Assembly (NCBI GenBank): GCA_964632395.1
Contig: CAZWES010000001.1
Coordinates: forward strand, 25,287-89,286
Source of the DNA: an uncultured Candidatus Peribacteria bacterium
Lineage (GTDB): Bacteria > Patescibacteriota > Gracilibacteria > Peribacterales > Peribacteraceae
DNA length: 64,000 nucleotides
Reading direction: 5' to 3'
Both the position numbers and the translations under genes were made by a program. Below are positions 22,150 through 63,840 of this stretch, one piece after another; within the stretch, counting starts at the first letter, position 1, and the number at the start of each line of letters is the position of its first letter. The notes beneath the pieces were generated by a model. The model saw nothing but the letters and a program-made list of their open reading frames with translations, did no database searches and was not told the DNA's origin.

Positions 22150-22352
22150 GTGGCGCGGGCGCATCCGATTGTTTATGAGTAGCTGTCGATCGGGTCAGGA
22201 TAGAAAATAGTTGTCGAGAGAGTAGGATCGCTCGCGCGGGGTTAGAATTGCTTCCACTAATGTTTTTCTCAGCATGTTCTTGCCCCGCGCGAGCGGTTCG
22301 GCATTCCGGCTTCGCTAGGCTCAGCCTACATGCCGAACGCGCACGCGCCACC
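22149..22352. repeat. Nested inverted-repeat (REP/BIME-like) element, copy 1, immediately upstream of the RayT gene
   Basis: Outer IR GGTGGCGCGGGCGC / GCGCACGCGCCACC. Inner IR CGCTCGCGCGGGG..AGAA / TTCTTGCCCCGCGCGAGCG. A further stem GTTCGGCAT/ATGCCGAAC is present. Confidence 0.8.
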
Positions 22353-22389
22353 TTTGTGCAATCGCTTGTGATAAAAAGCCTCTCCTATC

Positions 22390-23868: not shown

Positions 23869-24025
23869 CAGTTAAATGAATACAGGCGTTTTTTACGCCC
23901 AAGAGCCCCGCCTCCTGCAGGAGGACATCTGTGGGGAGCAATTGAGGACGTAGGCAGTATTCATTGGCTGCATGATACGCGCCGGGTCTCTGCCGTCAAG
24001 ACAAGTAAAGGTGTCATGGAACTAC

Positions 24026-24123
24026 GTCTCTCGACTCGGCCGTGCTCTTCTCGAGCGAGAGAGCCCGTAGCGTAGCGGAGGGCGAACGAGTCGAGAGACG
24101 AGCACGGCCTCGCTCGAGAAGAG
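24026..24123. repeat. Composite X/Y repeat locus
   Basis: X 24026-24037, Y' (reverse complement of Y) 24045-24057, X' 24088-24099, Y 24111-24123. GCCGTGCTC / GAGCACGGC lie between them. Confidence 0.8.
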
Positions 24124-36493: not shown

Positions 36494-36715
36494 TAATTTG
36501 GGTTCAGAGTAATCGCTTGATTATAGCAGAAAATGGGGGGTGGGGGTAGGGGGGAGAATGGGATTCGTATGTGGCAAAAACACCATCACGTGGTCAATTT
36601 TGGGGTAATTCCTCTTGCCAATAAGGAATACGTGGAGTACCGTGGTGACAGCAAGTAATTCCTTCCGCGTGGGGCTCCGTATAGGTTCCTCGTAAATAGC
36701 GCGGCGGGTTTTGCT

Positions 36716-37366
36716 CTATGGAAACAAAAACCGTTCCTCTGCTATCCGCGTTTTGATAATGTCAGCATAAAAAGGATCGTTGTGTTCATGCTTACGGAAT
36801 AGAGACCACGAAATGCAGTCTGCAACCTGCAGACATTTTTCTTCAGATGTCGTTTTGATGCTGACATCCAGAGAAACCAGATGGTTGCCCTTTGCCTGCC
36901 TTTGAAGGTACTGCTGGAAGTTGAGATTTAAGAATACGTTAGTTTCACGTTTGGAAGCAACAAGTTTAATTAGTCTATCCAGTGGAATTAGCCTTCGCGT
37001 GAAAATACGATCGAGGAGAATGTTCGTCACGTAATTGTATAGCACCTGTTTCTCATTCTGCATATTTGTGTACACCTTCTTTTTGTTCAGGATGATCGAG
37101 AGAATGGAAACATCGTGCTTTTTGAGTTCTTCTAATAGCCGTTTTCTCGTTACGGGTTTTTCCTTGAATGCGTGCAACACTCCGGGGTGATGCTTTAGTT
37201 CATGCTTAGTAAATCCACGGAATATCTTTTTCACAATTTTTCTGATTGCACGCATCGTTCGTTCATCTGGAACAAATAGGAACGTCACTACAAAGTGTTT
37301 TGAGGTTTTCTGTTTTGTGAAATCAAATCCCAAGTCGCCACTTTCGTCCATGAAGATATAGGCCAT
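36716..37366 (-). CDS. DUF3800-family protein
   Basis: The N-terminal MAYIFMDESGDLGFDF is the hallmark DESG motif. Confidence 0.7.
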   Translation of the reverse strand: MAYIFMDESGDLGFDFTKQKTSKHFVVTFLFVPDERTMRAIRKIVKKIFRGFTKHELKHHPGVLHAFKEKPVTRKRLLEELKKHDVSILSIILNKKKVYTNMQNEKQVLYNYVTNILLDRIFTRRLIPLDRLIKLVASKRETNVFLNLNFQQYLQRQAKGNHLVSLDVSIKTTSEEKCLQVADCISWSLFRKHEHNDPFYADIIKTRIAEERFLFP

Positions 37367-37408
37367 ATCATATATCTTACATGTAACAGATATTTCGAAT
37401 TAGGCTCC

Positions 37409-50170: not shown

Positions 50171-50188
50171 GTTTTAATACGTTGAAAC
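50171..50188. repeat. 18-nt palindrome, degenerate solo copy (3' half of an E-type element)
   Basis: GTTTTAATACGTTGAAAC preceded by GGTTTTCAT and followed by CAAGCAG, as at the right end of E1. Confidence 0.7.
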
Positions 50189-50264
50189 CAAGCAGCAGTT
50201 CTACATTTGATGACTTGTGAGTAGCGTCGGTCGATTGTGTTCGTACACACACGTTTGTATTGTT

Positions 50265-50355
50265 GTTTTAAAACGTTAAAACAAACACGCCTGCGTACAA
50301 AATGCAAAAAAGCCCCGATTCCGTGGTCTGCTATTCGAGGTGGAAAGCAGAAAAG
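50265..50355. repeat. F-element, left copy (18-nt palindrome plus about 70-nt conserved tail)
   Basis: GTTTTAAAACGTTAAAACAAACACGCCTGCGTACAAAATGCAAAAAAGCCCCGATTCCGTGGTCTGCTATTCGAGGTGGAAAGCAG... A near-identical direct repeat lies at 52429-52517. Confidence 0.85.
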
Positions 50356-50409
50356 CGAGACCAATCATGCCAAATTTGTTCTACTATTGGTTTGTTTCGA
50401 TGTTTTTAC

Positions 50410-51459
50410 ATGGCAGGCTTGCATTGGACAAAGTTGAAATCGTGCATCAAACTATTAGCCGAATTAACCTTAACCAGCTCGAAAGTGCCAAAAGAGATCT
50501 TTCTTAAATTGGGCAGTGTCAAATATTCAGGAAAGTCCATAGGCGATGATATACGGGTTGAAATCGAAACAATGGGAGAACGCGTTGTAGTTGATAAGCA
50601 AATTAAAAGAGGAACGACAAAACGGATTAATAAAGACATTGTAAGATTTACCGTTGATCAAAATTCACTCACTCTGCCAATTACAGTCAGAATAATTGAG
50701 AAAGATATTGTGTTCAATGATGTCGGAGCCAAAAAAGTGAAGATAAAGGTGGATTTGTCGAATCAAGGGTCACAAAAAAGCACTCATCGAGTGGAAGTAT
50801 TTGAAAAACGCTGGAAGTATAAAAAACCAAAAGCTTTGTTTGATGTCACTTTTGAAGTGTTGGCTTCAGATATATTTCGATACATCGAAGAAATGGATGA
50901 AGGATTTTTGTTGGTAAAAAACGAAGCTGATAAGAAGAAGTCTTTGCCAGCGTTTCTTAAAGTCAAATACAATCGACGTGAAAATGAGCGTGAATATTTT
51001 ACCCTTCTCGAAGGGGTTTTGCAGGGGAAGACATTTTCCGTAAAAGCGAAGAGTGGTGGAAGCTCTCGTCTTATTGAGGGAAATCCTTACACCGGGCCGG
51101 TTCATATGACTTATTCAAAGTCTGCAAAGAAATTAACTGTTAAGGGCAGAAAATATAAAATCATTGAGGATCCGGCAAATTCTTGGAGAAAAGGTGTCTA
51201 TGATGTTGAAATCCCTGATCATCCACACATGATGCCAGAGGATTATTTGAACAAATCTTCGAAAGCAAAAGTTTGGTTTCATATAGGTCATGATCATAGG
51301 GATGAAGTGGCGAAGGAGAGGTACTTGCATACTGGTACGATGACTGCAGGATGTATGACGATGATTGAGTTGGAAAAATGGGATGAGATTTATAAAATTC
51401 TTATCAAAGCGCGGAAGGGCGATTCGATGAGTGTTGGTACTGTTGAGATCATAGATTGA
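50410..51459 (+). CDS. Candidate cell-wall-targeting effector with YkuD/Tlde1-like motif (copy 2)
   Basis: ...GVYDVEIPDHPH...KVWFHIGHDH...RYLHTGTMTAGCMTMIELEKW. Collinear with 42891-43868, with roughly half the aligned residues identical by eye. The start is uncertain: ATG at 50410, or GTG at 50484, which would mirror the copy-1 N-terminus. The ORF-track start at 50302 lies inside the F repeat. Confidence 0.55.
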   Translation: MAGLHWTKLKSCIKLLAELTLTSSKVPKEIFLKLGSVKYSGKSIGDDIRVEIETMGERVVVDKQIKRGTTKRINKDIVRFTVDQNSLTLPITVRIIEKDIVFNDVGAKKVKIKVDLSNQGSQKSTHRVEVFEKRWKYKKPKALFDVTFEVLASDIFRYIEEMDEGFLLVKNEADKKKSLPAFLKVKYNRRENEREYFTLLEGVLQGKTFSVKAKSGGSSRLIEGNPYTGPVHMTYSKSAKKLTVKGRKYKIIEDPANSWRKGVYDVEIPDHPHMMPEDYLNKSSKAKVWFHIGHDHRDEVAKERYLHTGTMTAGCMTMIELEKWDEIYKILIKARKGDSMSVGTVEIID

Positions 51460-51464
51460 TAATC

Positions 51465-52376
51465 ATGAAACGTACTTTGTTTGTCATATCCGGCATTATC
51501 CTTATTGGAGTAATGGTTTGTATCGCATTAATCTTTTTTGCCAATGGAGGAACATCAGGAAAAGATGGAAGACTCCGCGCTATAGGCGAGTTTGGCAACC
51601 TCAAAATCGGAGACAAATATTTCTATAAGGCTGGTGGTGATGTTGGTAATGCTTACGAAAAAATTCCTCCATCGAGATTTTATATTTATGTTCTACGGAA
51701 TGACTATAATTATAATGATATCTGTACTTATGAGTCATGTGGAATTATTGGTGGTACGGTCTCTCTTTTAAGGGGGTGGCTAATGGGCTACAAGCTTTCT
51801 CCTTATGAAGAGGAATTTGGTCTTGAATTAAACGACGCCGGAGAATTTCCGACTGGAGAATCGTCTCTGATTGTTGTCGCAGACGGCGATTCTAAAATTA
51901 GAGGAATACATCCAAACGCAAAAATGGATAATTTAATTAACATTTTAAAACTATATCCCGACCTGGTAGATTTTGATCTTCTGAGAGGGATGACGGAATT
52001 TGGACCGCTTGAAGTCGGCGCAGATTTTCCGGCCCATCTTATTCAGGAATTTGACGACCATATTTTTGCAGGGGAACCACAAAAGAAATTCACAGTGTAT
52101 TACATATGGAATAAACCGCGGGGACCCGGATGTAATTACTTTGAGTGCGGGTATCATCTCGATCTCATTTATTCATACGGAGGAGATTATTTAGATATCT
52201 GCCCCGATCGCGATGACGTGCTTCTGGAGCTTGGCATTAGCCCTTCACAGGTATCGCGCGGTGAGGCGACTCTTATGGTGATAACCGATTCCAAAAACAA
52301 AATAACAGGTATTCACCCCAATGTTTTGCTTAGAGATGTGGCTGGGATTTTGTTGCAATACGCTTTGGTGCGGTGA
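51465..52376 (+). CDS. Membrane-anchored protein with two tandem copies of the candidate immunity domain (copy 2)
   Basis: MKRTLFVISGIILIGVMVCIALIFF is a TM helix. Two repeats follow: FGNLKIGDK...CTYESC...LIVVADGDSKIRGIHP and FGPLEVGAD...CNYFEC...LMVITDSKNKITGIHP. The ATG is 5 nt after the upstream stop. Confidence 0.6.
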   Translation: MKRTLFVISGIILIGVMVCIALIFFANGGTSGKDGRLRAIGEFGNLKIGDKYFYKAGGDVGNAYEKIPPSRFYIYVLRNDYNYNDICTYESCGIIGGTVSLLRGWLMGYKLSPYEEEFGLELNDAGEFPTGESSLIVVADGDSKIRGIHPNAKMDNLINILKLYPDLVDFDLLRGMTEFGPLEVGADFPAHLIQEFDDHIFAGEPQKKFTVYYIWNKPRGPGCNYFECGYHLDLIYSYGGDYLDICPDRDDVLLELGISPSQVSRGEATLMVITDSKNKITGIHPNVLLRDVAGILLQYALVR

Positions 52377-52428
52377 AGCACTGGAAGAATTTTGTTTGGT
52401 CATCTTTAGCGTTAGTATTTGTTTCCAT

Positions 52429-52530
52429 GTATTAATACGTTAAAACAAGCGCGCCTGCGTACAAAATACAAAAAGCCCCGATTCCGTGGTCTGCTATCCG
52501 AGGTGGAAAGCAGAGAGGTGGAATCGGGGC
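52429..52530. repeat. F-element, right copy, extended into a terminator hairpin
   Basis: GTATTAATACGTTAAAACAAGCGCGCCTGCGTACAAAATACAAAAAGCCCCGATTCCGTGGTCTGCTATCCGAGGTGGAAAGCAGAGAGGTGGAATCGGGGC. Confidence 0.85.
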
Positions 52531-52547: not shown

Positions 52548-53153
52548 TCAGCGTTTTCTGCTCTTCAATTCTTCTGCTACTTCAAAAAGATCAATTTGGG
52601 AACTCTGTAGAAAAACCAGTGCGTGATACAGTAAATCAGCAGCTTCTTCCCTAGTTCTCAGGTTCCCCTCGCTTTTAGTGGCACAAATAAGTTCTTTTGC
52701 CTCCTCAATTACCTTTGCTCCGCACACTTCGATCCCGCCATCAAGCAGTCGTTTTGTGTACGAACTCTTTTGATCTGCATTTCTGCGCTGCCGGATTGTT
52801 TCAATTAGTTCCCCGATTGTTTCGAGTGGGAGTTCAGGAGCGTCAAAGCATGAAATATTGTTTTTGTGACAAGTTGGACCCTTTGGGATTGCCCGAATAA
52901 GGAGAGTATCGCCATCGCAGTCTAAGTAAATGGAATCGAACCTTAGAGTGTTTCCCGATTTCTCCCCCTTCTCCCACAGTCTTTTCTTCGATCTGCTGTA
53001 AAAGGTCACATTACTCGAATCAATGGTCTTTTTCAGTGCTTCCTCGTTCATATAGCCGAGCATAAGGATGTGACCTGTTCTAGCATCCTGAATGATTGCA
53101 GGAACGAGCCCATCAGGGTTTTTTTGCCAGTTAATGGCATCAAGATCAATCAT
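52548..53153 (-). CDS. hisI: Bifunctional phosphoribosyl-AMP cyclohydrolase / phosphoribosyl-ATP pyrophosphatase
   Basis: GLVPAIIQDARTGHILMLGYMNEEAL...YLDCDGDTLLIRA is the HisI part. The C-terminal EEAKELI...EEAADLLYHALVFL is HisE. Confidence 0.85.
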   Translation of the reverse strand: MIDLDAINWQKNPDGLVPAIIQDARTGHILMLGYMNEEALKKTIDSSNVTFYSRSKKRLWEKGEKSGNTLRFDSIYLDCDGDTLLIRAIPKGPTCHKNNISCFDAPELPLETIGELIETIRQRRNADQKSSYTKRLLDGGIEVCGAKVIEEAKELICATKSEGNLRTREEAADLLYHALVFLQSSQIDLFEVAEELKSRKR

Positions 53154-54631
53154 AATCTGACGGGGAAAGAGGCTTTTTGTAGCGCTTCCTTCACGTCCCG
53201 GATGCGAAATGTTTCAAAGTGAAACACGCTCGCAGCAAGTACAGCATCAGCTTTCCCCTCCTGAACTGCATTGACAAATGTTTGTAGAGACCCTGCTCCA
53301 CCGGAGGCAATGATTGGAACACGAACGTGCTTTTTAATCTCTCGCAGAAGCTCCGTGTCGAATCCTTCACCGGTTCCATCACGATCATAAGATGTTACAA
53401 GCAATTCTCCTGCTCCTCGTTCAACAGCTTCCTGTGCCCATTCAATTGCATCAAGCCCCGTATCTTCACGACCTCCTCGAACAAGCACAGTCCAGTTTTT
53501 TCCTTTGCGTTTCGCATCAATTGCGCAAACCGTATTTGCACTTCCAAGCTGTTCCGCCATTTTCGAAAGAAGTTCTGGTCTTTTCACGGCGGCAGAGTTT
53601 ACAGAAACTTTATCTGCCCCTGCTTCGAGTAGTCGTCTGGCGTCGTCAACGGAGCGAATGCCTCCACCAATTGTAAGTGGTATATTCACGCTGTCTGCAA
53701 CACTGGATGCAAGATCATATACGGCTTCCCGATTATCAAGTGTTGCGGTGATATCGAGAAATACCAGTTCGTCTGCACCTTCATCGCAGTATCGTTTGGC
53801 AAGCTCCACGGGATCACCGGCATCGCGTAGATTCTGAAACGATGCGCCTTTCACAACACGGCCATTCGTCACATCCAAACAAGGAATAATGCGAATAGCA
53901 GGATCAGAGCTTGCGGAGATGAAAAGTTCTGAGAGTGATGTTGCATCATTCAGTAGCGACTTACCGACGACAGCCGCAGCGCAGCCTTGTGATCGAAGTG
54001 TACGGATATCACTTCCACCTCGTATTCCGCCACTCGCAATAACTCTGACTGATGGAAACTTTGACTGCACATTCTTGTACAAGCGGAGACTTGGACCTGA
54101 TTCCATTCCGTCATACTCGATATCTGTGATGAGCACAGTGTCAATGTCCATTTGTACGATACGCCGCAAGGCATCATTGAGACTCACATTTGTTCCATCA
54201 CGCCAACCCCGAATTTTCACTTCATCTCCCCATACATCGAGTGCAGCAATGAAGCGATTTCTACCAAAAAGCGTAACGGCATTTCGCAACACATCAGGGC
54301 TCGTGAAGATGAGCGTTCCGATAACAATTTGTTCTGCGCCCGCATCGAGAAGCATCTGAATATCTTTGAGAGAGCGAATGCCACCACCCGTCTGAACCGA
54401 TAATCCTGTCTCTGCGACAATGTTTTGTATAAGCTGCAAAAAGGCAGAACCAACCTTCCCTTTTTTCGCTCCTGAAAGATTCACAAGGTGAATTCGTTCT
54501 GCACCTTCCTCTTTGTATCGCTTGGCAATCGTGAGTGGATCATCTTTCCACGTTGTTTTGCGCGTGAAGTCACCCTGTGCAAGTCGCACAGTTTTTCCAG
54601 CCAGCACGTCAATGGCGGGGATTACTTGCAT
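53150..54631 (-). CDS. hisAF: Fused HisA-HisF protein (ProFAR isomerase plus IGP synthase cyclase subunit)
   Basis: N-terminal half: MQVIPAIDVLAGKTVRLAQGDF...VQTGGGIRS...ASGGIRG (HisA). C-terminal half: RIIPCLDVTNGRVVKG...IGGGIRS...IASGGAG (HisF). It is one uninterrupted 493-aa ORF. Confidence 0.85.
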   Translation of the reverse strand: MQVIPAIDVLAGKTVRLAQGDFTRKTTWKDDPLTIAKRYKEEGAERIHLVNLSGAKKGKVGSAFLQLIQNIVAETGLSVQTGGGIRSLKDIQMLLDAGAEQIVIGTLIFTSPDVLRNAVTLFGRNRFIAALDVWGDEVKIRGWRDGTNVSLNDALRRIVQMDIDTVLITDIEYDGMESGPSLRLYKNVQSKFPSVRVIASGGIRGGSDIRTLRSQGCAAAVVGKSLLNDATSLSELFISASSDPAIRIIPCLDVTNGRVVKGASFQNLRDAGDPVELAKRYCDEGADELVFLDITATLDNREAVYDLASSVADSVNIPLTIGGGIRSVDDARRLLEAGADKVSVNSAAVKRPELLSKMAEQLGSANTVCAIDAKRKGKNWTVLVRGGREDTGLDAIEWAQEAVERGAGELLVTSYDRDGTGEGFDTELLREIKKHVRVPIIASGGAGSLQTFVNAVQEGKADAVLAASVFHFETFRIRDVKEALQKASFPVRL

Positions 54632-55179
54632 AATTTAGCGAAAGAAAGAAGATAACGGTCTCCAATCTCTCCCGATTTCTCCGGGTGCCACTGCACACCG
54701 AAGAAGTTTTCTTGTCGAACACCAGCGCATAACGATTCACCGTACTGCACAGTCATTGTGATGATATTCGGATCATCCGGTACACAGGTATAACCGTGTA
54801 CAAAATACGCATAGTCGCCCGTTGAGAGCTTGTTCCATCCCATGTGTGGCTTGGTTATGGTGTTTGGAAGTTCCTGTACTTCTCCTTTGATAATTCCCAG
54901 ACATTCGGTGGGACCCTCCTCCGATTTTTCAAAAAGAAGTTGCATACCGAGGCAGAGGCCAAGAAATGGTTTTTTGAACTTGCGGAGCGGCTCGACCAAT
55001 CCTCGATCTTGTAAACGATTCATTGCTGCTTTTGCTGCACCTGCTCCAGGCACGATCAGCCCTGAAAGCTCTTTAAGCTCTCCTGCCTTTTCAACAATTC
55101 GTGAAGAGATATCAAGGCGGGTGAGCGCACGTTGTACGCTTCCTACGTTGCCTGCGCTGTAACGGAGAATGCCTATCAT
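54622..55179 (-). CDS. hisH: IGP synthase glutamine amidotransferase subunit
   Basis: MIGILRYSAGNVGSV...PFLGLCLGMQLL...GVQWHPEKS is the triad pattern. The start is adjacent to the hisB stop. Confidence 0.85.
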   Translation of the reverse strand: MIGILRYSAGNVGSVQRALTRLDISSRIVEKAGELKELSGLIVPGAGAAKAAMNRLQDRGLVEPLRKFKKPFLGLCLGMQLLFEKSEEGPTECLGIIKGEVQELPNTITKPHMGWNKLSTGDYAYFVHGYTCVPDDPNIITMTVQYGESLCAGVRQENFFGVQWHPEKSGEIGDRYLLSFAKLCK

Positions 55180-56216
55180 AGTGAGCCTTTGGTAGAAGGA
55201 ATGCCCTGCTCGTGCGGGCATGAGCGAAAAGCAGATCGCAGAGCGCGACCTAACCCCTTAAAAAGAGCTTCAATTTTGTGGTGCTCGTTCTCACCTCTGC
55301 GCAGTGTCATGTGCAAATTACATTTAAGCGTCTGTGCAAGTGACTCGAAGAAGTGTGCTACGAGTTCTGTTGGAAGTTCCCCCACGTATTCACGCTTGAA
55401 TTTGCCATCGAAAATGAAGTAGGGACGGCCAGAGAGATCAACAACAATTTCTGCGAGTACTTCATCCATAGGCACCCAAAAGCCATATCGTTCAATCCTG
55501 CGTTTGTCACCCAGAGCTTTTGAAAGCACCAAGCCAAGCACAATACCAATATCTTCCACAGTGTGGTGTTCATCCACTTGCAGGTCTCCGTCTGCTTTTA
55601 GTGTGAGATCAATGAGAGAGTGCTTTGTAAAGAGTTCGATCATGTGATCGAGAAACCCAATGCCTGTGCTTACATCGGATTTTCCTGACCCATCGAGGTT
55701 CACAAATGATTCGATCTTCGTTTCTTTCGTTTCACGCTTCACAGAAGCGAACCGAGGAAACTGCGTATTTGTTTGCATCTTCACAAAGCACACACCTATG
55801 TTTTCTGCAAACTCACGATCAGTCTTACGATCTCCAATCGTCAGTGATTGTCCGAGATCAATATCATTCTCATCGAGGAATTGTTTCACCAAACCAATCT
55901 TTGGCTTCCGACATTCACAATTATTACTCTGCGTGTGCGGACAGATGAAAATTTGATCAAAAACGATTCCTTCCTCCAATAATTCTGAAAGGAGCCCGCC
56001 TTGTGGAGGCTCAAAGTCTTCCCGTGGGAAGCTCTCGGCACCTAAACCATCTTGATTACTGACCATCACAAGAGAAAACCCTTGTTCTTTGAGTGCCTGT
56101 AATCCTTCAATGACGTTGGGAAGAACACGAAATTTCTCCATAGAATCAACCTGTTTTGTCTCTGGCGGCTCCCAGATCAGAACGCCGTCACGGTCAATGA
56201 ATGCTACTTTTTTCAT
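55176..56216 (-). CDS. hisB: Bifunctional histidinol-phosphatase / imidazoleglycerol-phosphate dehydratase
   Basis: N-terminal HAD motif VAFIDRDGVLI and C-terminal IGPD motifs (IGFLDHM, HHTVEDIGI, ENEHHKIEA). Confidence 0.85.
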   Translation of the reverse strand: MKKVAFIDRDGVLIWEPPETKQVDSMEKFRVLPNVIEGLQALKEQGFSLVMVSNQDGLGAESFPREDFEPPQGGLLSELLEEGIVFDQIFICPHTQSNNCECRKPKIGLVKQFLDENDIDLGQSLTIGDRKTDREFAENIGVCFVKMQTNTQFPRFASVKRETKETKIESFVNLDGSGKSDVSTGIGFLDHMIELFTKHSLIDLTLKADGDLQVDEHHTVEDIGIVLGLVLSKALGDKRRIERYGFWVPMDEVLAEIVVDLSGRPYFIFDGKFKREYVGELPTELVAHFFESLAQTLKCNLHMTLRRGENEHHKIEALFKGLGRALRSAFRSCPHEQGIPSTKGSL

Positions 56217-57286
56217 GAAAGTAATGAGGAAAGAGAAGCAATAAGAAGATCGTTTTCTTTCTGTGTTCCGGTAGAAATGCGGAGGCAGTTTTCAAGTTGT
56301 GGCTTTGACCCGAAATTTCGCACAATGATTTTCTTCTCATTGCGCAATCTCTCGTACATATCATTGCTGCTTATTTTTTCGGGGAGGCGCATAAGAAAGA
56401 AATTTGCATCGCTCGGATATACAGTACATCCGAGCCCCATACAGGCTTCTTCCACACGTTTTCTTTTTTTGAGGAGTAGCCGTACATTTTTTTCCATTTG
56501 CTCTCTTTTTCCCCACAATACCACCCCCATTCTCTGAGTGAGCAGATTTACGTTGTACGGTGGCTTAGTTTTGAATAGCTGCTCTGTGACACGTGAGTCT
56601 GCAATGCCATAGCCAAGACGTATTCCCGCAGCGCCAAAAGCCTTGCTGAATGTACGCATAACGAGTAGGTTTTTCGCCCCATTCTTCACAAGCTCGATGG
56701 CAGATGGAATACCATTGGCATCTGCAAATTCTCCGTACGCTTCGTCTATTACGATGAGACCTTTAAATTCATTTACAATCTTATCGAGCATCTCTATGGG
56801 GATACTGTTGCCTGTAGGATTGTTGGGGCTACAGAGGAAGAGAATATCTGCCTCAGAAAATCTGGCGGAGAGTTGTTCTTCATTAATCCCGAATGAAGAT
56901 GTGAGCGGAATGCTCACGTATGGTGATCCACATATATCTGCGCAGACTCTATACATTCCATAGGTTGGAGCAACACTAAGAACGCTATTCTTTGGTCGTA
57001 CGAATGTGCGTATAGCAAGGTCAATCAATTCATCTGTTCCATTGGTCATAATGATTTGCTCTCTTCGAATGCCATAGAATGCTGCGATCTCATCACGAAG
57101 AACATCAGTCGTTGGATCAGAGTAGCGATTGATGCCTTTTATTGAAGGGGGAGGGATATCAATTGTGAATGGAGACTCATTTGCATCAAGGTATATCCAT
57201 CCTTCATCCTTGCAGATGTGGCGTGCACAAACGTAAGGTCGAATCGCCTGAGTGGAAGCCGGTATTGGTGGAGATTGAAATGTCAT
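56213..57286 (-). CDS. hisC: Histidinol-phosphate aminotransferase
   Basis: YLDANESPF...LRTFSKAFGAAGIRLGY carries the PLP lysine. Confidence 0.85.
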   Translation of the reverse strand: MTFQSPPIPASTQAIRPYVCARHICKDEGWIYLDANESPFTIDIPPPSIKGINRYSDPTTDVLRDEIAAFYGIRREQIIMTNGTDELIDLAIRTFVRPKNSVLSVAPTYGMYRVCADICGSPYVSIPLTSSFGINEEQLSARFSEADILFLCSPNNPTGNSIPIEMLDKIVNEFKGLIVIDEAYGEFADANGIPSAIELVKNGAKNLLVMRTFSKAFGAAGIRLGYGIADSRVTEQLFKTKPPYNVNLLTQRMGVVLWGKREQMEKNVRLLLKKRKRVEEACMGLGCTVYPSDANFFLMRLPEKISSNDMYERLRNEKKIIVRNFGSKPQLENCLRISTGTQKENDLLIASLSSLLS

Positions 57287-58575
57287 GGCTTGGCAAAGCG
57301 AATTTCCACTGCTCTTGCGTGGGCTTCGAGGCCCTCGGCGCGGGCAAGGATGGTAGCTGCGATTTTGAGATTGTTCAGTCCGATTTCATTGAGTTTCTGA
57401 ATGGAGAGCTGTTTCTGAAATATGCGCACAGAAACACCGCTCTGTGTCCGCGCTGTTCCAGATGTAGGCAGTACGTGGTTTGTTCCAGAACAGTAATCAC
57501 CTACAGTTTCAGGAGTGTATGGACCAACGAATACCGATCCGGCATTCTGGATGCTTTCTAAAACAGTGTCGGTGTTATTCGTCTGTAGACTCAGGTGTTC
57601 TGGCGCGTAGGAGTTACTCAGGTCAATTGCCTGCTCAAGCGTTTCCGTAATGATTATGCAACTTCGCTCAAGTGACTCAGAGGCAATGTCTTTTCGCGGC
57701 AGTGTGAGAAGCTGCTCTCGTAGTTCTTGCAGAACCGACTTTGCAATTGCTTCGGATGTTGTAAGCAGAACTACCTGTGCACCCATACCGTGTTCTGCTT
57801 GAGAGAGCATATCAGCAGCGATACAGCGAGGGTTTGCAGATGTATCTGCAATGATGAGTAGTTCCGAAGGACCAGCGAGCATCTCAATATCCGCGCCGCC
57901 CGGATCAATACTTACTAATGCTTTTGCGGCTGTCACATAGGCGTTTCCGGGTCCGGCAATCTTATCCACCTTCGGTATCGTTTCCGTACCGTACGCGAGT
58001 GCAGCTATTGCCTGCGCTCCACCAACTGAATAGATTTCATCCAGCCCCAGAAGGTTGGCAGCGGCGTAAATGACATTTGCATCCTTCTGTTCCTTCTGTG
58101 GTGGTGTGCAGAGGGCAATGCTCTTCACTCCTGCAAGCTGCGCCGGTACTGCCAACATGAGGAGCGTTGAGAAAAGCGGTGCCGTTCCCCCCGGTATGTA
58201 TAAGCCTACCCGTTCAATGGGACGAATGAGATATTTACAGGAAACACCGGCAGTCGTTTCAACCTCTTTCATTTCTGATTGGGACTGCCCATGAAACGTG
58301 CGTATATTTTCGATGGAAAATCGCATACTTTCTATTAGCTCCTCAGACACACGACTTGCCGATGCACGGATCACTTCCTCGGGCACACGAAGTTTTCCAG
58401 GTTCAAAATCGTCAAATTTCTTCGAGTACGTGCGGATTGCTTCATCTCCTTCTTTTTGCACTGCTTCAATGATTGGACGCACTGTATCAATGTATTGTGA
58501 AAGGTCGCGCGTAGGACGTTTCAGTGATTCCAATACAACTTCTATTCCCGTCGTTGATAGTGAAAGCATTTTCAT
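57283..58575 (-). CDS. hisD: Histidinol dehydrogenase
   Basis: ...AGPSELLIIAD...QAEHG...NHVLPTSGTAR. Start at MKMLSLS, 7 nt after the hisG stop. Confidence 0.9.
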   Translation of the reverse strand: MKMLSLSTTGIEVVLESLKRPTRDLSQYIDTVRPIIEAVQKEGDEAIRTYSKKFDDFEPGKLRVPEEVIRASASRVSEELIESMRFSIENIRTFHGQSQSEMKEVETTAGVSCKYLIRPIERVGLYIPGGTAPLFSTLLMLAVPAQLAGVKSIALCTPPQKEQKDANVIYAAANLLGLDEIYSVGGAQAIAALAYGTETIPKVDKIAGPGNAYVTAAKALVSIDPGGADIEMLAGPSELLIIADTSANPRCIAADMLSQAEHGMGAQVVLLTTSEAIAKSVLQELREQLLTLPRKDIASESLERSCIIITETLEQAIDLSNSYAPEHLSLQTNNTDTVLESIQNAGSVFVGPYTPETVGDYCSGTNHVLPTSGTARTQSGVSVRIFQKQLSIQKLNEIGLNNLKIAATILARAEGLEAHARAVEIRFAKP

Positions 58576-58582
58576 AATCACT

Positions 58583-59449
58583 TTATTGGATAAGTTTTTC
58601 AATTGGAGATACAAGAATGCCCGTTGCACCGCATTTCTTGAGCTTTTCGACTACATCCCAGAAATCCTCTTCAAGAACGACCGAGTGAACAGCGATCATT
58701 TCCGGCTTTGCAAGTTTCATCGTGGTGGGACTGTCAAAACCCGGCACAAGTTTCATAACCTTTTTTAGAGATTTTTCCGGCAGATTGAACATGATGTATT
58801 TATATTTTCGTGCATCCTGTATACCTCTTGCGCGTAAGAGCAATTTATCAATCAATTGTTTCTTCCTTTCCGGTGCACTTTTGCTGCCAATGAGTATAGC
58901 CTTACATTCCATCACATTCTCGATGATGCGCAGCCTGTTTGTACGGAGTGTACTGCCTGTGGAAACGAGATCGCAGATTGCATCTGCCACTTTCAAAGCA
59001 GGTGCGATCTCCACGCACCCCTTGAGAACAATCACATCTGCGTCAATCTTCTTTTGTTTGAGATATTTCCTGAGTAATTGAGGATATGATGTTGCAATCT
59101 TTCCTCCTTTGAGGTCAGATAAGACATCGTAGGATGAGGTCTCTGGTACTGCAATAGATAGCGAACAATAACCGAAATCAAGGGGTATAAGTCGTTCTGT
59201 CTTTGCGCCATTTTCTTCAAGCAGGTTGCTTCCAACGATTCCGAGGTCGGCAACTCCATCCTGCACGTATTCCGGTATGTCGTCATCCCGCAGGAATAAA
59301 ATATCAACATCAATGTTGCGACAACGCGTAAAGAGCCTGTTCTGATATGTTTCAAATTCAAGCCCCATTGATTTTAGGAGCGCAATTGACCCCTCGGACA
59401 GTCGTCCTGATTGTTGTACTGCTATGCGTAGGTTTCCATTTAATTGCAT
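58583..59449 (-). CDS. hisG: ATP phosphoribosyltransferase, long form
   Basis: LRIAVQQSGRLSEGS...DLVSTGSTLRTN..., plus a C-terminal regulatory domain. 288 aa. Confidence 0.85.
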   Translation of the reverse strand: MQLNGNLRIAVQQSGRLSEGSIALLKSMGLEFETYQNRLFTRCRNIDVDILFLRDDDIPEYVQDGVADLGIVGSNLLEENGAKTERLIPLDFGYCSLSIAVPETSSYDVLSDLKGGKIATSYPQLLRKYLKQKKIDADVIVLKGCVEIAPALKVADAICDLVSTGSTLRTNRLRIIENVMECKAILIGSKSAPERKKQLIDKLLLRARGIQDARKYKYIMFNLPEKSLKKVMKLVPGFDSPTTMKLAKPEMIAVHSVVLEEDFWDVVEKLKKCGATGILVSPIEKLIQ

Positions 59450-59468
59450 GGTAATTTGTGGGAAATAT

Positions 59469-59496
59469 AAAAAAACCTCCTCACCGCGAGGAGGGG
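59469..59496 (-). terminator. Terminator-like hairpin between the YerC-like gene and hisG
   Basis: Minus strand: CCTCCTC GCGGT GAGGAGG followed by TTTTTTT. It lies 16 nt after the yerC-like stop and 20 nt before the hisG ATG. Confidence 0.55.
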
Positions 59497-59511
59497 ATGA
59501 TGTGGCAATTG

Positions 59512-59865
59512 TTATTTTTTCGAACCACGCCGTCCTCTCCCCGCGGGAGTACTTGCGTGGTGGCGATGATCCTTACCCAGCGCTTTACGATATCCACCTT
59601 CCCCGTTATTCAAAAACCCAGCTATGCGAGTTATCGTGGCAGTGCTTGCTCCGGTTTTCCGTGCAACCTCGCGATAGGGGAGTCCGCTTAGAAGTAGTCC
59701 TGCAACTTCCAGTCTTTCGCTCAAGGCCTGCATTTCGCTCAATGTTGCAACATCCCGCAGGAAATTTGCTGTTTCCCTTATTGTGCGGCATCTGACAAAA
59801 GCTGCGCACAGCGCACGTAGTTCAGGACTTTTTCGCCAGGTGTTTTCGCGGAAGCTGCGTTTCAT
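59512..59865 (-). CDS. yerC: YerC/YecD-family TrpR-like DNA-binding protein
   Basis: ...LRDVATLSEMQALSERLEVAGLLLSGLPYREVARKTGASTATITRIAGFLNNGEGGY matches the TrpR-related YerC/YecD pattern. Confidence 0.75.
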   Translation of the reverse strand: MKRSFRENTWRKSPELRALCAAFVRCRTIRETANFLRDVATLSEMQALSERLEVAGLLLSGLPYREVARKTGASTATITRIAGFLNNGEGGYRKALGKDHRHHASTPAGRGRRGSKK

Positions 59866-59900
59866 GGGGGCAATATATAGTGGGCGGGGGTGTGTGTCAA
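59866..59900 (-). promoter_or_regulatory. Sigma-70-like promoter positioned for a leaderless yerC-his transcript
   Basis: Minus strand: TTGACA (59900-59895), 17-nt spacer, TATATT (59877-59872), 6 nt, ATG (59865). The -35 lies 1 nt from an 18-nt palindrome. Confidence 0.5.
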
Positions 59901-59901
59901 T

Positions 59902-59986
59902 GTTTTAATACGTTAAAACAAGAGGCAAGGAAAAGCAGCCTTAACGTGGAGTTTAGGCTTGTTTTGGTGTTTTAATACGCTAAAAC
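59902..59986. repeat. E-element copy 1 (two 18-nt palindromes flanking a conserved imperfect hairpin)
   Basis: GTTTTAATACGTTAAAAC AAGAGGCAAGGAAAAGCAGCCTTAACGTGGAGTTTAGGCTTGTTTTGGT GTTTTAATACGCTAAAAC. Confidence 0.9.
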
Positions 59987-60164
59987 CAAGCAGATTTAAT
60001 CAAGATTCACAGAACTTTCTCCATCCATACTGTTTCCAGTCCTCCAAGCTCCCCGCGTTTATATTCGCGATAGCCCCTGATGATTATTGATGACTCTGTA
60101 GCTCAAGGATAATATTTCTTATATTTCTTGCAATGATTTTCTTAGAGGAATGTGGGGTAAGAAT

Positions 60165-60250
60165 GTTTTAATACGTTAAAACTAGGGGCGAGGAAAAGCA
60201 TCTGTAAAGTGGGATTTTGAGCTTGTTTTCGTGTTTTAATACGCTAAAAC
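60165..60250. repeat. E-element copy 2
   Basis: GTTTTAATACGTTAAAAC TAGGGGCGAGGAAAAGCATCTGTAAAGTGGGATTTTGAGCTTGTTTTCGT GTTTTAATACGCTAAAAC. Confidence 0.9.
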
Positions 60251-60285
60251 TACACAGCTGTGCAAAACTTCAGAGTAGAAGCCTC

Positions 60286-61431
60286 CTATTCAATCTTCAG
60301 TATTTTACAGTCCACAAGATATGGCGAATTAAATGCGGTCGTTTCACCTGCCTTTTTGCCGGGCACTGGGAATAAGCGGGCAGACAGTGGTTTGTCCAAT
60401 TTGATTGCCAAAGTCGCTATGTCCAGAAGTGTTGCTTCAATCTTTTCTGTCGGTGTATCTCCTGGGATCGGGACAGTATCCAGTCCGCAACCGCAAACCG
60501 CTGAATATAAGAGCAGGTTAGAGATGTTATAAGTTTCCTCATTTGCCCCTGCTGCAAGCCCTCGATCTTCACAGACTGGAAGCATAAGACCGGAGTAACC
60601 GCATTGTTTTACTGATAGTCTCTTTAGTACACGTGTGATCAAGGCAGAAATTGTAAGCGTCCCCTGGTTTCCGAATTTGCCAAATCCTAGCTTTTCATAG
60701 GCAAAAGCAACACTTTCCTGCTCTTCAAGGCCTGGATTTAGTGAAACATCTATTCCGTTATATTTAATATTGGAGTCCTTTGAGATTTGCTGAGATAGGT
60801 CTGCTATCTTTTTGGTTTCTTCCTCGAATATTTGTTTTAGGTTTTGTTCGGCCTCTGTGAGATTATTGGATTTTGAAAATGCTTTCATGGCCAAATCTCC
60901 ACATTCCAGGCCAATACTGAAAGCGTCTTCACCTTCATGAAATCCTGTGGGAAAGAAGGGGATGCCTGCTTTGCAGTTTGCAGAAGCGCAAAACCTGAAA
61001 TTCCCGTAACCGTTTTCTGTTTCTTCGGCGATTCTTTTAATAACCTGCGCAGCAACTTTGGCATTTTCAAAGTTTATTCCGCTGTCTTTATCACCTATTT
61101 TCGCTGAGCACGAAATTCGGGAAGTTACCTTATTGAATTCTGGTACAAGTTTTATTCTCTCAGGAGTGTCTGCAAATCCAACATTAAAGAAACTCACATC
61201 GAGTTCTTCACATACATGTTCTATTTTTTGAATTGCACTGACGATTTCTGCATCAGGGAGACTGCCAAGATATTCTTCCCAGGAATTTGTAGATATCCTT
61301 GTCGTCTGAACTTCGTAGCTTGATTTTTCGAAAACATTTTTTGCTACCTGGTTAAAATCAGCAGCTTTCCTGATTCTATCTTCTTCATGCGATTTTAGAG
61401 ATATGCCTGTTGTTATGGTTCTGATTTTCAT
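60286..61431 (-). CDS. UPF0210/DUF711-family protein
   Basis: The N-terminal MKIRTITTGISL is characteristic of DUF711. 381 aa. Confidence 0.55.
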   Translation of the reverse strand: MKIRTITTGISLKSHEEDRIRKAADFNQVAKNVFEKSSYEVQTTRISTNSWEEYLGSLPDAEIVSAIQKIEHVCEELDVSFFNVGFADTPERIKLVPEFNKVTSRISCSAKIGDKDSGINFENAKVAAQVIKRIAEETENGYGNFRFCASANCKAGIPFFPTGFHEGEDAFSIGLECGDLAMKAFSKSNNLTEAEQNLKQIFEEETKKIADLSQQISKDSNIKYNGIDVSLNPGLEEQESVAFAYEKLGFGKFGNQGTLTISALITRVLKRLSVKQCGYSGLMLPVCEDRGLAAGANEETYNISNLLLYSAVCGCGLDTVPIPGDTPTEKIEATLLDIATLAIKLDKPLSARLFPVPGKKAGETTAFNSPYLVDCKILKIE

Positions 61432-61524
61432 ATTTTATCCGGGTAGGTTCTAGATCATAGTACCAAATAAGGTGGGACACGTGAAATTTTTGTGCTGTAT
61501 GTAAAAGAGCATGCTTGTTTTCAT

Positions 61525-61610
61525 GTTTTAATACGTTAAAACAAAGGGCAAGGAAAAGCAGCTTTAAAGTGAAGTTTGGAGCTTGTTTTGGTGTTTTAAT
61601 ACGTTAAAAC
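61525..61610. repeat. E-element copy 3
   Basis: GTTTTAATACGTTAAAAC AAAGGGCAAGGAAAAGCAGCTTTAAAGTGAAGTTTGGAGCTTGTTTTGGT GTTTTAATACGTTAAAAC, preceded by GCTTGTTTTCAT. Confidence 0.9.
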
Positions 61611-61679
61611 TAAGCCAAGCTGCATGAAAACAAAAAGATAGCTCCACTCCTATATCCGGTTTGACGCTATAATTCCAAC

Positions 61680-62570
61680 ATGCTTGATACTAGTTTGGTA
61701 CACAGCATTCTCACAGAGTCCTTTCCTTCACTTGAGGTTGCAGAAATTGTCGCGCTGGGGGAAGGGTGGCACATTGATGCGTTTGCTGTGAATGAGGAAT
61801 ACGTCTTTCGGTTTCCGAAGACGGAGGAAGCCGTTGTACATCTTCGAAAGGAAATATGCATGCTTCCAAAACTCCGTTCCGCCCTACCACTCGCCATTCC
61901 TGATTTTACATTCGTCGGCAAACCATCTCAGTCATTCCCGCGACCGTTTGTAGGATACAAAATGATCGATGGGGAGATTCTGACGAAAGAATCATTTGCC
62001 AGTCTCTCCGACGCAGCAAAGAAAAGCATCGCCAAGCAGGTCGCGGATTTTGTGATGGCAATGCACAGCTTTCCTTCCCCTGAGGCAAAGAAGTGCGGCA
62101 TAGAAACATTGGATGCGCGTGACGACTACACGGAATTCCTGCGAGAAATAAGGGAGAAGGCGCTTCCGAAGCTTTCAGGTGCAGAGCAGGAAGAAGTTGT
62201 CTGTCTTTTTGAATGGTTCCTCGAGGAAGAGAAAAATTTTGCATATGAACCAATTCTTCGCCACGCGGATTTGGGGCTCTGCCATCTGCTTAGTGACGGG
62301 CAAAAACTGATAGGTGTAATCGACTTCGGAGATATGACAATCGGCGATCCGGAGTATGAGCTTCATTTCCTTTATGAGGGCTGTGGAAGAGTTTTCATCG
62401 AGCTCATCCTGCAGTATCTGAATCATCCTGACCCCGATCGTCTATTGCAAAAGCTGCAGTTCTATTCCAAGATGAATTTTCTGGATGACGCACTGCATGG
62501 GCCAACTGATGGGTGGAAAGAGTGGGGATGGAAAGAGTTCAGAAGAGCATTGGAATCTCCCACTGAGTAG
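61680..62570 (+). CDS. Aminoglycoside-phosphotransferase-fold (APH/choline-kinase family) kinase
   Basis: ILRHADLGLCHLL is the catalytic-loop HxD and VIDFGDMTIGDP is DFG-like. Confidence 0.75.
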   Translation: MLDTSLVHSILTESFPSLEVAEIVALGEGWHIDAFAVNEEYVFRFPKTEEAVVHLRKEICMLPKLRSALPLAIPDFTFVGKPSQSFPRPFVGYKMIDGEILTKESFASLSDAAKKSIAKQVADFVMAMHSFPSPEAKKCGIETLDARDDYTEFLREIREKALPKLSGAEQEEVVCLFEWFLEEEKNFAYEPILRHADLGLCHLLSDGQKLIGVIDFGDMTIGDPEYELHFLYEGCGRVFIELILQYLNHPDPDRLLQKLQFYSKMNFLDDALHGPTDGWKEWGWKEFRRALESPTE

Positions 62571-62590
62571 TTGTTGGCATAAGTACTGGT

Positions 62591-62677
62591 GTTTTAATAC
62601 GTTAAAACAGTGGGGCAAGGAAAAGCAGCTTTAAAGTGGGGTTTGGAGCTTGTTTTCGTATTTTAATACGTTAAAAC
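62591..62677. repeat. E-element copy 4
   Basis: GTTTTAATACGTTAAAAC AGTGGGGCAAGGAAAAGCAGCTTTAAAGTGGGGTTTGGAGCTTGTTTTCGT ATTTTAATACGTTAAAAC. Confidence 0.9.
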
Positions 62678-62724
62678 AGACCAAAGTCTCTAAAAGCTCA
62701 GAAAAATACAGAGATGGAGCCTCG

Positions 62725-63840
62725 TCACGTAACAACCTCCTCCAATCTTCCATCATCGACCGTCTTTTTTATCTCCCCCGCAATCCTCTCCCCATAACTC
62801 ACTGGCTCCCCATGCAAGTACATCGAGTAGGGAGTGAACTTTGTTCCCGGCGACCCCGGAATCCTCAAACTAACATCAAAAATAACAATATCCTCTTTGC
62901 CCTCTTCTGCAACAACTGCGCCCTGCAAAGCGAATGGGCCGATGATGCCTTTGTCATCATGTTTTTTAGTTGCAGCCACAAACTTTTCACCCAGGTCAAA
63001 TGCTTTTTCCAGAATGGATTCTTTTACGGTGACGGCGATGTGACCAGTCTCAATCATCTTCAGGTCAACGTGCTTGAGTGCCTTAGCTTGTTCGGCTGCA
63101 GTCATTTTCAAAAACCCATCAAGATTAGTTTGTCTTCTTGTATCTGTTCCCATCAACTCAAGTTCGTTTGAAAGAGGGGAGTAGAAGAAGTTGAAGTTAA
63201 CCGGAGCGCCGACTACAAATTCCTCAATCACGGCATCACGCCAACTTGAATCCACTTTTCCATCTGCCTCAAGTTTTGATCCTTCTTCTTCATATTCATC
63301 TTTACTTGAGACAACAAAGAAGGCGCGCTCATAACTTCGTGCTTTCTCACTTGCCTTGACAATTATCGGCCTGTCGATCTCTTCCGGCTTTTCAAAAATC
63401 TTTGGAGCTCTGATGCCAGCGTCATGCAACAAATGATACTGGTTGTAAGGCTGGTCGCGTTCCTCCAGTTTTATGTACGAGCGGTTGCCGAAGATCGGTA
63501 CATTGAAATCATTTTCAACTCGTGAATAATCGCTGAAGTAAACCCAAAAGTAGCGATTGTGGATAAAAATTGTATTCAGAGATCTTAAGTTTTCCTGAAC
63601 TTCATCATCAAGAACGTTTTCGAATGTTTCAACTGGTATCACTTCATCAACACACCCTTTCCCGTCACGAGCCTTGTAATACGTATCGTAAGTTTTGTTT
63701 CTGCCTTTTCGCGCTACGCATACAGTCTTAAAGTCAAACTTCTTTGCGCCATGGCAAACATCAAGTGCGCTGTGTCCGCCAAGGACGCCAATTGAGATCT
63801 TATTTGTGTCGTAGCCTTTGAGGAGTTCTTGGGGGGTCAT
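62725..63840 (-). CDS. purP: FAICAR synthetase PurP (archaeal-type, ATP-grasp)
   Basis: ISIGVLGGHSALDVCHGAKKFDFKTVCVARKGRNKTY parallels the PurP N-terminus (I.t.GSHSAL.i..GAK.eGF.T). 371 aa. Confidence 0.75.
   Translation of the reverse strand: MTPQELLKGYDTNKISIGVLGGHSALDVCHGAKKFDFKTVCVARKGRNKTYDTYYKARDGKGCVDEVIPVETFENVLDDEVQENLRSLNTIFIHNRYFWVYFSDYSRVENDFNVPIFGNRSYIKLEERDQPYNQYHLLHDAGIRAPKIFEKPEEIDRPIIVKASEKARSYERAFFVVSSKDEYEEEGSKLEADGKVDSSWRDAVIEEFVVGAPVNFNFFYSPLSNELELMGTDTRRQTNLDGFLKMTAAEQAKALKHVDLKMIETGHIAVTVKESILEKAFDLGEKFVAATKKHDDKGIIGPFALQGAVVAEEGKEDIVIFDVSLRIPGSPGTKFTPYSMYLHGEPVSYGERIAGEIKKTVDDGRLEEVVT

Follow-up and report, generated by a model that had tools for sequence, protein, structure and literature searches.

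A 64-kb stretch of DNA from an uncultured Candidatus Peribacteria bacterium (contig CAZWES010000001.1, positions 25,287 to 89,286; "the window" below denotes this whole stretch) carries four copies of a composite repeat of 85-87 nt, here termed E, in which two 18-mers (GTTTTAATACGYTAAAAC), referred to as boxes a and b, enclose a conserved core of ~49 nt. The interpretation of these 18-mers as DNA operators of the HisR protein encoded at 59512-59865 of the same window appears, as judged from the sequence, to be essentially right. It is likely, albeit with substantial room for doubt, that E as a whole is a DNA-level dual HisR operator that was copied locally during gene gain and loss. The operator family is known; what is new is the composite and its local multiplication at junctions of lineage-specific genes. 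The elements and their predicted protein partner are:

E1, 59902-59986, + strand: box a at 59902-59919, core, box b at 59969-59986.
E2, 60165-60250, + strand: box a at 60165-60182, box b at 60233-60250.
E3, 61513-61610 including a 5' partial core, + strand: box a at 61525-61542, box b at 61593-61610.
E4, 62591-62677, + strand: box a at 62591-62608, box b at 62660-62677, with the first base of box b changed from G to A.
hisR, 59512-59865, - strand: YerC/YecD gene of the TrpR family, 117 aa, predicted protein partner of the boxes.

The coordinates and shared architecture of the four elements had been given in an earlier note on this DNA and were borne out by a check of the sequence, as was the start-to-start distance between boxes of 67-69 nt (67, 68, 68, and 69 nt in E1 to E4). 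With ≤2 mismatches allowed, the 18-mer has 11 matches in the window, every one of them on the + strand and between positions 50171 and 62677 (12.5 kb), against a chance expectation of 0.02 in dinucleotide-preserving shuffles of the window. Three of these matches, at 50171, 50265, and 52429, are solo boxes that the earlier note did not contain. No further boxes were found in positions 1-50170 of the window or in the 7.6 kb beyond the window end (a contig of JGI metagenome 3300009374; the source contig also occurs in ENA SUTE22-1 assemblies). A uniform scatter through the genome, which the note had named as a refuting result, was not observed: of the ~71 kb covered, only 12.5 kb holds copies, and these lie at gene junctions.

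YerC is HisR, a TrpR-family histidine repressor, whose operator is a 20-bp palindrome with the consensus cacTTTAnnnnnnTAAAgtg and the core TTTA-N6-TAAA; in vitro binding by R. gnavus HisR depends on histidine (PMC9413887). The window box tGTTTTAatacgtTAAAACa (tGTTTTA-ATACGT-TAAAACa) shares this palindrome core, and all 11 copies match it with ≤1 mismatch. The window protein matches Pfam Trp_repressor (PF01371, 9.7e-20) and TIGR02531 (6.7e-18), and its closest solved structure is PDB 3G1C (1.4e-13), the E. eligens protein that serves as the HisR structure in the published work (PMC9413887). Its helix-turn-helix (HTH) motif, YREVARKTGASTATITR, retains the A-T-x-x-R contacts listed there, and homologues of it are labelled Peribacteria.

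Recurrence of the 18-mer at hisR genes elsewhere provides a second line of evidence. Exact-match scans of the GTDB genome collection (185,579 reference genomes), the JGI metagenome collection, and IMG/VR yielded a total of 90 loci outside the source organism, 55 in reference genomes and 35 in JGI metagenomes, with no locus in IMG/VR. Each of the 90 loci contains a single match; none presents an E-type composite and no second multi-copy locus was found. A HisR homologue is encoded in 40 of them (phmmer with the window YerC-like protein), and in 36 the box lies ≤30 nt from the 5' end of the HisR homologue reading frame. The hisR-associated loci derive from Peregrinibacteria, Peribacteria, Paceibacterota, Gracilibacteria, Bdellovibrionota, Steroidobacteraceae, Puniceispirillum, and others. 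In three further loci (L072, L073, L081) the box is accompanied by the same flanking sequence, which in L073 continues into hisG, 32 nt downstream. Exact GTTTTAATACGYTAAAAC occurs at hisR promoters of Steroidobacteraceae and other Gammaproteobacteria (L006, L012, L015, L025, L036, L054, L066, L069, L075) and of Puniceispirillum (L001, L016, L018). The published proteobacterial HisR motif, TGTAnTArnnnnyTnTTACA, differs from the 18-mer, and the exact box at proteobacterial hisR promoters therefore suggests that the published split of motifs by phylum may be incomplete. An identical 18-bp operator would seem to be in use at hisR promoters across very distant phyla.

These results bear on two earlier statements about E. 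The suggestion of a paired operator for a dimeric HTH protein, for which both a YerC-like and an ArsR-like neighbor had been named, holds for YerC/HisR on account of the consensus match and the recurrence at hisR; the ArsR-like neighbor is not needed because in one lineage (L105) E occurs without an ArsR gene in the locus. The statement that E belongs to no described family no longer applies to the palindromes, which match the HisR operators of PMC9413887, but it does apply to the 49-nt core and the composite: these have no Rfam match, and nhmmer searches of 819 kb of sequence with a profile of E or its core returned complete copies only at the known sites. An orphan-looking repeat is thus resolved into a known regulator-operator pair.

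The conserved unit extends beyond 18 nt as (GC)TTGTTTYSRT plus the box, which places a third GTTTT half-site 8 bp upstream. This extra half-site is present at all four b boxes, at E3 box a, and at two of the three solo boxes, and in the same 8-bp-shifted position it also occurs at many unrelated hisR promoters as GTTTYAGYGTTTTAATACG... Since the GCTTGTTTTSGT-plus-box part of the profile matches unrelated hisR promoters, the extended operator is conserved. In the tandem TrpR operators of E. coli trp, aroH, and trpR, dimers occupy overlapping sites with an 8-bp offset. The system described here shares with TrpR the protein fold, and in GTTTTSRT-GTTTTAAT-ACGYTAAAAC the half-site recurs with an offset of 8 bp, which creates a second, overlapping imperfect palindrome; it is unlike TrpR in its half-site (GTTTTA here versus GNACT), and tandem occupancy by HisR is only predicted.

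One site upstream of a hisR-his operon is the described arrangement (PMC9413887), and the window shares with it both the position of hisR as first gene of a hisR-his operon and a site at its own promoter, which points to autoregulation. The features concerned are:

hisR promoter, 59872-59900, - strand: TTGACA, 17 nt, TATATT, 6 nt, ATG.
his operon, 52548-59449, - strand: hisG, hisD, hisC, hisB, hisH, a hisA-hisF fusion, and hisIE.
his operon intrinsic terminator, 52462-52530, - strand: GC-rich hairpin of -36.2 kcal/mol, z -7.6, then UUUUUGUAUUUUG.

With 11 of 12 consensus matches, the hisR promoter is the sole promoter exceeding 9 of 12 in 59400-62900. E1 box a lies 1 nt upstream of its -35 hexamer and 36 nt from the hisR ATG, so that HisR bound there would overlap the -35 contact and block RNA polymerase. 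The same placement is found in the outgroups L097 and L108, where a box is again 1 nt upstream of a TTGACA -35 hexamer (the L108 box is partly degenerate); in L109 the corresponding box sequence is too degenerate to call. The position of the hisR -10 hexamer, 6 nt from the ATG, suggests a leaderless hisR mRNA. A perfect TATAAT at 61667-61672, 7 nt before the ATG of an APH-family gene, is placed like the hisR -10, and this similarity suggests leaderless mRNAs at both genes. Between the hisR stop and the hisG ATG is a terminator-like hairpin (59466-59494, - strand; CCTCCTCGCGGTGAGGAGG followed by T7; -12.4 kcal/mol, z -3.0), only ~26 nt from hisG. The hairpin is conserved in both L094 and L105 and may be an attenuator or a device that sets the hisR:his expression ratio.

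The remaining copies of E are distributed among the following genes:

GNAT acetyltransferase gene remnant, 60013-60066, - strand: between E1 and E2.
DUF711 gene, 60286-61431, - strand: between E2 and E3.
APH-family phosphotransferase gene, 61680-62570, + strand: between E3 and E4; lineage-specific.

E1 and E2 are upstream of the yerC-like gene (hisR) and the his operon; E2 is 36 nt downstream of the stop codon of DUF711 and precedes the decayed GNAT gene. The divergent DUF711 (-) and APH (+) genes have E3 between them, and the APH and PurP genes converge on E4. Gene annotation agrees with the context originally described (upstream of yerC-his, divergent, convergent). In L097 DUF711 is followed by a GNAT gene, to whose 3' end the remnant is 81% identical over 54 nt. 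The DUF711 gene (UPF0210) adjoins hisR, hisS/hisZ-like genes, or hisG in relatives (loci L094, L097, L099, L100), and this linkage in several relatives suggests a functional tie to histidine metabolism in the clade.

Six distinct copies of E, namely the four of the window (E1-E4) and a single copy from each of the lineages L094 and L105, were compared column by column:

Box a: 0 of 18 columns variable, pairwise divergence 0.
Box b: 2 of 18 columns variable, pairwise divergence 0.05.
Core: 20 of 50 columns variable, pairwise divergence 0.16.

The boxes (2 of 36 columns variable) are far less variable than the core (20 of 50; Fisher p = 3e-4), indicating that the boxes are the selected part. Gene conversion would homogenize the core too, and selection on the boxes is accordingly the simpler account; the boxes are retained through selection, presumably because HisR binding still occurs there. 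This comparison also bears on the notion that E1 box a alone works, the solo boxes and E2-E4 being by-products of local duplication that have no function or, at most, serve as decoys that titrate HisR. Only E1 adjoins a recognizable promoter, as that notion would have it, and E2, E4, and the box at 52429 lie at 3' gene ends, so that among these sites the promoter position of a HisR operator is found at E1 box a only. Yet conservation of the boxes is no lower in E2-E4 than in E1 though the cores of E2-E4 have diverged by 10-25%, and neutral decay would strike boxes too. We therefore consider by-products or decoys a highly improbable account of the additional copies.

The same distribution of conserved columns weighs on the possibility that E forms a structured RNA, either a small RNA of ~50 nt or a cis hairpin, which would be transcribed from the + strand and would terminate in the U-rich tract that precedes box b. 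Folds of the + strand are stabler than those of the - strand and fall below shuffled controls (z -1.2 to -3.0), G-U pairs in the hairpin favour the + strand, and one change in the E1 stem is possibly compensatory. However, conservation falls on the boxes rather than on the stems, and stem pairs are disrupted in E2 (three) and in the L094 copy (two) with no clean covariation; in the six copies, a small sample for a covariation test, most pairs are invariant. No consensus promoter is directed into the core, an upstream gene on the + strand exists at just one of the four copies, and genuine terminators of the source organism are GC-rich hairpins, unlike E. The Rfam check named in the earlier note, when run, matched neither core nor composite to any family, even at E ≤ 5: at gathering score the scan recovered only two tRNAs, and with E ≤ 5 as the cut-off the region 59400-62900 gave no relevant match. 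The central hairpin described in the note can be drawn, but minimum-energy folds are not alike between copies. Given the lack of covariation, the stem-disrupting changes, and the lack of a consistent promoter, the structured small RNA that had been proposed was set aside, and a structured RNA of any kind is regarded as very unlikely.

Several other assignments were likewise tried and rejected. A terminator within E is unlike the GC-rich hairpins with U-tracts at 52462-52530 and between hisR and hisG. A promoter of the form TTGTTT-16-TAAAAC has a -10 in which the final T is missing, and a -35 hexamer is lacking at most a boxes. A CRISPR mini-array was rejected because the "spacers" are conserved between copies, and an archaeal origin recognition box or a Xer/dif-type site is unsupported by gene context or copy layout. 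An archaeal promoter, prompted by the TATA-like TTTTAATA and the PurP genes, was dropped, as the Obg, type IV secretion system-like genes, and names of DUF711 homologues point to a bacterium of the candidate phyla radiation; the nearest named DUF711 homologues are labelled "Candidatus Gracilibacteria" and Patescibacteria group, and long open reading frames (ORFs) of the window are intact under the standard bacterial code.

The history of E was traced in relatives retrieved via DUF711 and HisR homologues. A complete E is present in the window lineage (four copies) and in the L094 and L105 lineages (one copy each, at the hisR promoter). In L094-L096, whose DUF711 is 90% identical, a single E lies between hisR and DUF711, solo boxes are found between decayed his genes and beside ArsR with the same strand as in the window, and the E3-APH-E4 block is missing; the single E of L094 stands where the window has E1, the GNAT remnant, and E2. 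L105 and L106 (HisR 89% identical) have one E and a box between a divergent ABC exporter gene and hisR. One box each and no E is found in L097 and L108, and a degenerate box remnant and no E in L109; the more distant DUF711 loci (L098-L104, identity ≤84%) contain neither boxes nor E. The his operon of the lineages L094 and L105 retains no more than hisR, hisI, and hisG or remnants of these genes. The restriction of E to three lineages, at the hisR promoter, indicates that it arose there in their common ancestor. E1 is accordingly judged to be the ancestral copy, and multiplication of E is judged to have taken place only in the window lineage. Box flanks are alike (GCTTGTTTYSRT before, AAGCWGC after), and together with the shared orientation this shows that copies descend from one another by direct duplication rather than by independent origin. 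A further core fragment of 12 nt (61513-61524) directly precedes E3.

Additional boxes occur at the far end of the his operon:

Solo HisR box GTTTTAATACGTTGAAAC, 50171-50188, + strand: located 46 nt past the ArsR-like gene and preceded by the GGTTTTCAT half-site; its orthologues occur in L094 and L105.
Solo HisR box GTTTTAAAACGTTAAAAC, 50265-50282, + strand: in the left copy of a 98-nt direct repeat.
Solo HisR box GTATTAATACGTTAAAAC, 52429-52446, + strand: in the right copy of the repeat, beside the his operon terminator.

The 98-nt direct repeat (50254-50351 and 52418-52514) consists of a HisR box and the 5' half of the his terminator, and it flanks an insert (50352-52417) of low GC (0.40) and high GC skew with two ORFs, neither of which has a Pfam or NCBIfam match. 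At the same site L094 has a different two-gene insert, with the flanking repeat ending elsewhere in the terminator loop, and L105 has no insert: two boxes and the terminator adjoin PolX, with no ArsR gene.

Observations of this kind raise the possibility that E is the junction of a cassette-type recombination, either site-specific at the boxes or homologous over 85 nt, in which directly repeated copies recombine and the intervening genes are gained or lost, with HisR binding secondary or co-opted. All copies share one orientation; E copies bracket the lineage-specific APH gene and the GNAT remnant, and a single E in L094 takes the place of E1, the remnant, and E2 of the window; the homology shared by the window and L105 stops precisely at the outer edge of E1 box b; and the different two-gene inserts of the window and L094 beside the his terminator each lie between box-containing direct repeats. 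Against this, the cluster, the larger ORFs scanned across the window, and the gene calls of the 7.6 kb past its end yielded no integrase or recombinase. Breakpoints between lineages are mostly off the box edges (extra DNA of 93 nt and 47 nt lies outside E3 and E4, respectively, and the repeats end variably), the bracketed genes point both ways, and E copies that flank a segment are not especially alike (pairwise identity 86% for E1-E2 and 92% for E3-E4). The APH gene is missing from L094 and L105, and its sole other homologue in a collection search is 41% identical, with no closer donor flanked by E; the APH(2'')-like protein itself falls below every NCBIfam cut-off. On balance a recombination junction to which HisR binding is incidental is unlikely, and to the same degree we doubt that E is a portable operator cassette, that is, an 85-nt recombination substrate for the entry and exit of genes at the his locus. 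If the latter were true, APH, DUF711, GNAT, and the ABC exporter would be wired into histidine-responsive control on arrival, and the operator would double as the junction of a small, integrase-free cassette array in a bacterium of the candidate phyla radiation (CPR). A role of E as a homologous-recombination substrate at a hotspot of gene flux is possible.

Integron attC sites share with E the hairpin-capable direct repeats bordering variable genes and the AAC...GTT triplets, here at the inner box ends. E is unlike attC in that no IntI was found, genes point both ways, and housekeeping his genes stand between copies; E shows neither the R''/L''-L'/R' layout nor a match to RYYYAAC/GTTRRRY beyond the AAC/GTT triplets. 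The proposal of a structure-recognized site analogous to attC or REP (repetitive extragenic palindromic) sequences was thus not sustained as a site-specific system, since no integrase or transposase was found in the cluster or matched among the larger ORFs scanned and breakpoints are imprecise at the boxes.

E could also be a non-autonomous mobile element, such as a miniature inverted-repeat transposable element (MITE) or an element resembling REP, bacterial interspersed mosaic elements (BIMEs), or palindrome-associated transposable elements (PATEs), with terminal hairpins that are HisR boxes by coincidence or were co-opted from such boxes, and mobilized in trans, for example by a transposase encoded elsewhere in the window:

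Y1 transposase ORF (IS200-like), 22390-23022, + strand: 210 aa, Pfam Y1_Tnp 1.8e-9.

Sharp box-to-box ends, hairpin-forming termini, and the presence of this Y1_Tnp ORF are in keeping with mobility. A bias toward one strand is reported for elements that transpose via single-stranded DNA, as in the biology of IS200/IS605, and all copies of E are on one strand. Nevertheless, no target-site duplication or common flanking motif was found at the four copies, the copies are limited to the 12.5-kb cluster, and no multi-copy match was recovered from the 185,579 reference genomes, the JGI metagenomes, or IMG/VR. The Y1 gene is flanked by unrelated GC-rich inverted repeats, 37 nt upstream (22148-22353) and ~1 kb downstream (24025-24123), and not by boxes; it may be a gene like those for REP-associated tyrosine transposases (RAYTs), unrelated to the HisR boxes. 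Moreover, a true MITE of relatives looks quite unlike E. This insert of ~115-127 nt lies exactly at the hisR start codon in L094 (rc, 4818-4944; 127 nt) and L105 (rc, ~3392-3505), is not in the window, and has imperfect terminal inverted repeats (ACGGCTTCGCG.../...CGCGAAGCCG) and a CAT duplication, whereas E has neither terminal inverted repeats nor target duplications nor, in the DNA covered, dispersed copies. Mobilization of E as a transposable element is thus thought improbable.

REP/BIME sequences, REP doublets (REPINs) with their RAYTs, and the PATEs of IS200/IS605 share with E the short intergenic palindromes, the composite layout, the strand bias, and, in this window, a Y1 gene; they are unlike E in that E copies are local in the DNA covered, its paired boxes are in direct rather than inverted orientation, no boxes flank the Y1 gene, and the E palindrome is a transcription-factor operator common to unrelated genomes. 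Correia elements (Correia repeat enclosed elements) and "mobile promoters" are genome-dispersed repeats with regulatory sites, terminal inverted repeats, and target duplications. E resembles Correia elements in that a short repeat puts regulatory sequence beside different genes, and differs from them in its occurrence at one locus and in its lack of terminal inverted repeats and target duplications.

For E as a dual HisR operator the following mechanism is proposed. A HisR dimer, with histidine as co-repressor, would bind each TTTA-N6-TAAA palindrome, and the GTTTT half-site at the 8-bp offset would provide a second, overlapping HisR site in the style of the TrpR tandem. E would act as a double-stranded regulatory module of two operators held at a fixed spacing of ~68 bp by a 49-nt spacer, and the paired boxes may bind cooperatively. 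E and the shorter box-bearing segments would have been copied as direct repeats into adjoining intergenic spaces, probably via homologous or duplicative recombination, amid gene turnover around the his operon. Local direct duplication during gene turnover would account for the same orientation of all copies and for their position at gene junctions. The boxes of E2-E4 may still bind HisR, which would tie DUF711, APH, and the former GNAT gene to the level of histidine.

Several observations present challenges to this proposal. First, binding of HisR at the window boxes is a prediction from sequence. Second, E2 and E4 are not at obvious promoters, and since E4 lies between convergent gene ends, classic promoter occlusion cannot account for conservation of the boxes of these elements. 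Third, ~68 bp corresponds to ~6.5 helical turns, so that the two boxes would face opposite sides of the helix, a phasing not suited to simple looping. Fourth, the invariant blocks of the core, GG..GGAA.A.CA.C and GCTTGTTTT, have a role that the operator model leaves unexplained. Fifth, the hairpin between hisR and hisG leaves the reach of the boxes over the biosynthetic genes in doubt. Finally, the distribution of E was judged from ~71 kb of genome, and wider dispersal is possible.

Published HisR regulons have a single site per regulated promoter and come from Firmicutes, Actinobacteria, Proteobacteria, Synergistetes, and a few other phyla (PMC9413887). The locus described here is unlike them in its CPR host (Peribacteria/Gracilibacteria-like), in having 11 sites in 12.5 kb, 8 of which form fixed-spacing pairs around a 49-nt core, and in the location of some sites at 3' gene ends. 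HisR regulation would thereby be extended to CPR/Patescibacteria. If the extra copies are functional, they would constitute a compact case of new genes brought under an existing amino-acid regulon and of operator-bearing repeats promoting gene turnover in reduced genomes. None of this amounts to an RNA, mobile element, or recombination system of a new class.

Other features of the window and its relatives were recorded in the course of this work. Two archaeal-type PurP genes, encoding FAICAR (5-formaminoimidazole-4-carboxamide ribonucleotide) synthetase, and a phosphoribosyl pyrophosphate synthetase gene lie beside the his operon (window 62725-63840; L056 5794-6849 and 7592-8707). The histidine pathway releases AICAR (5-aminoimidazole-4-carboxamide ribonucleotide), the substrate of PurP, and linkage of PurP and his genes would thus be metabolically sensible. 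The window encodes a bacterial Obg GTPase. It further encodes TraC/VirB4-like and VirD4/TraG-like ATPases (34310-39973, - strand), with a DUF3800 gene between them (36716-37366); these VirB4/VirD4-like genes possibly form a module for conjugation or DNA uptake, at a distance of ~10 kb from the box cluster. Lastly, a G/T-rich 47-nt direct repeat, TTTGGAGTTTGGGATTCTTTTGGAATTTGGAGCTTGGA, at 16504-16550 and 20758-20804 (89% identical) brackets a class II ribonucleotide reductase gene (16675-20193).

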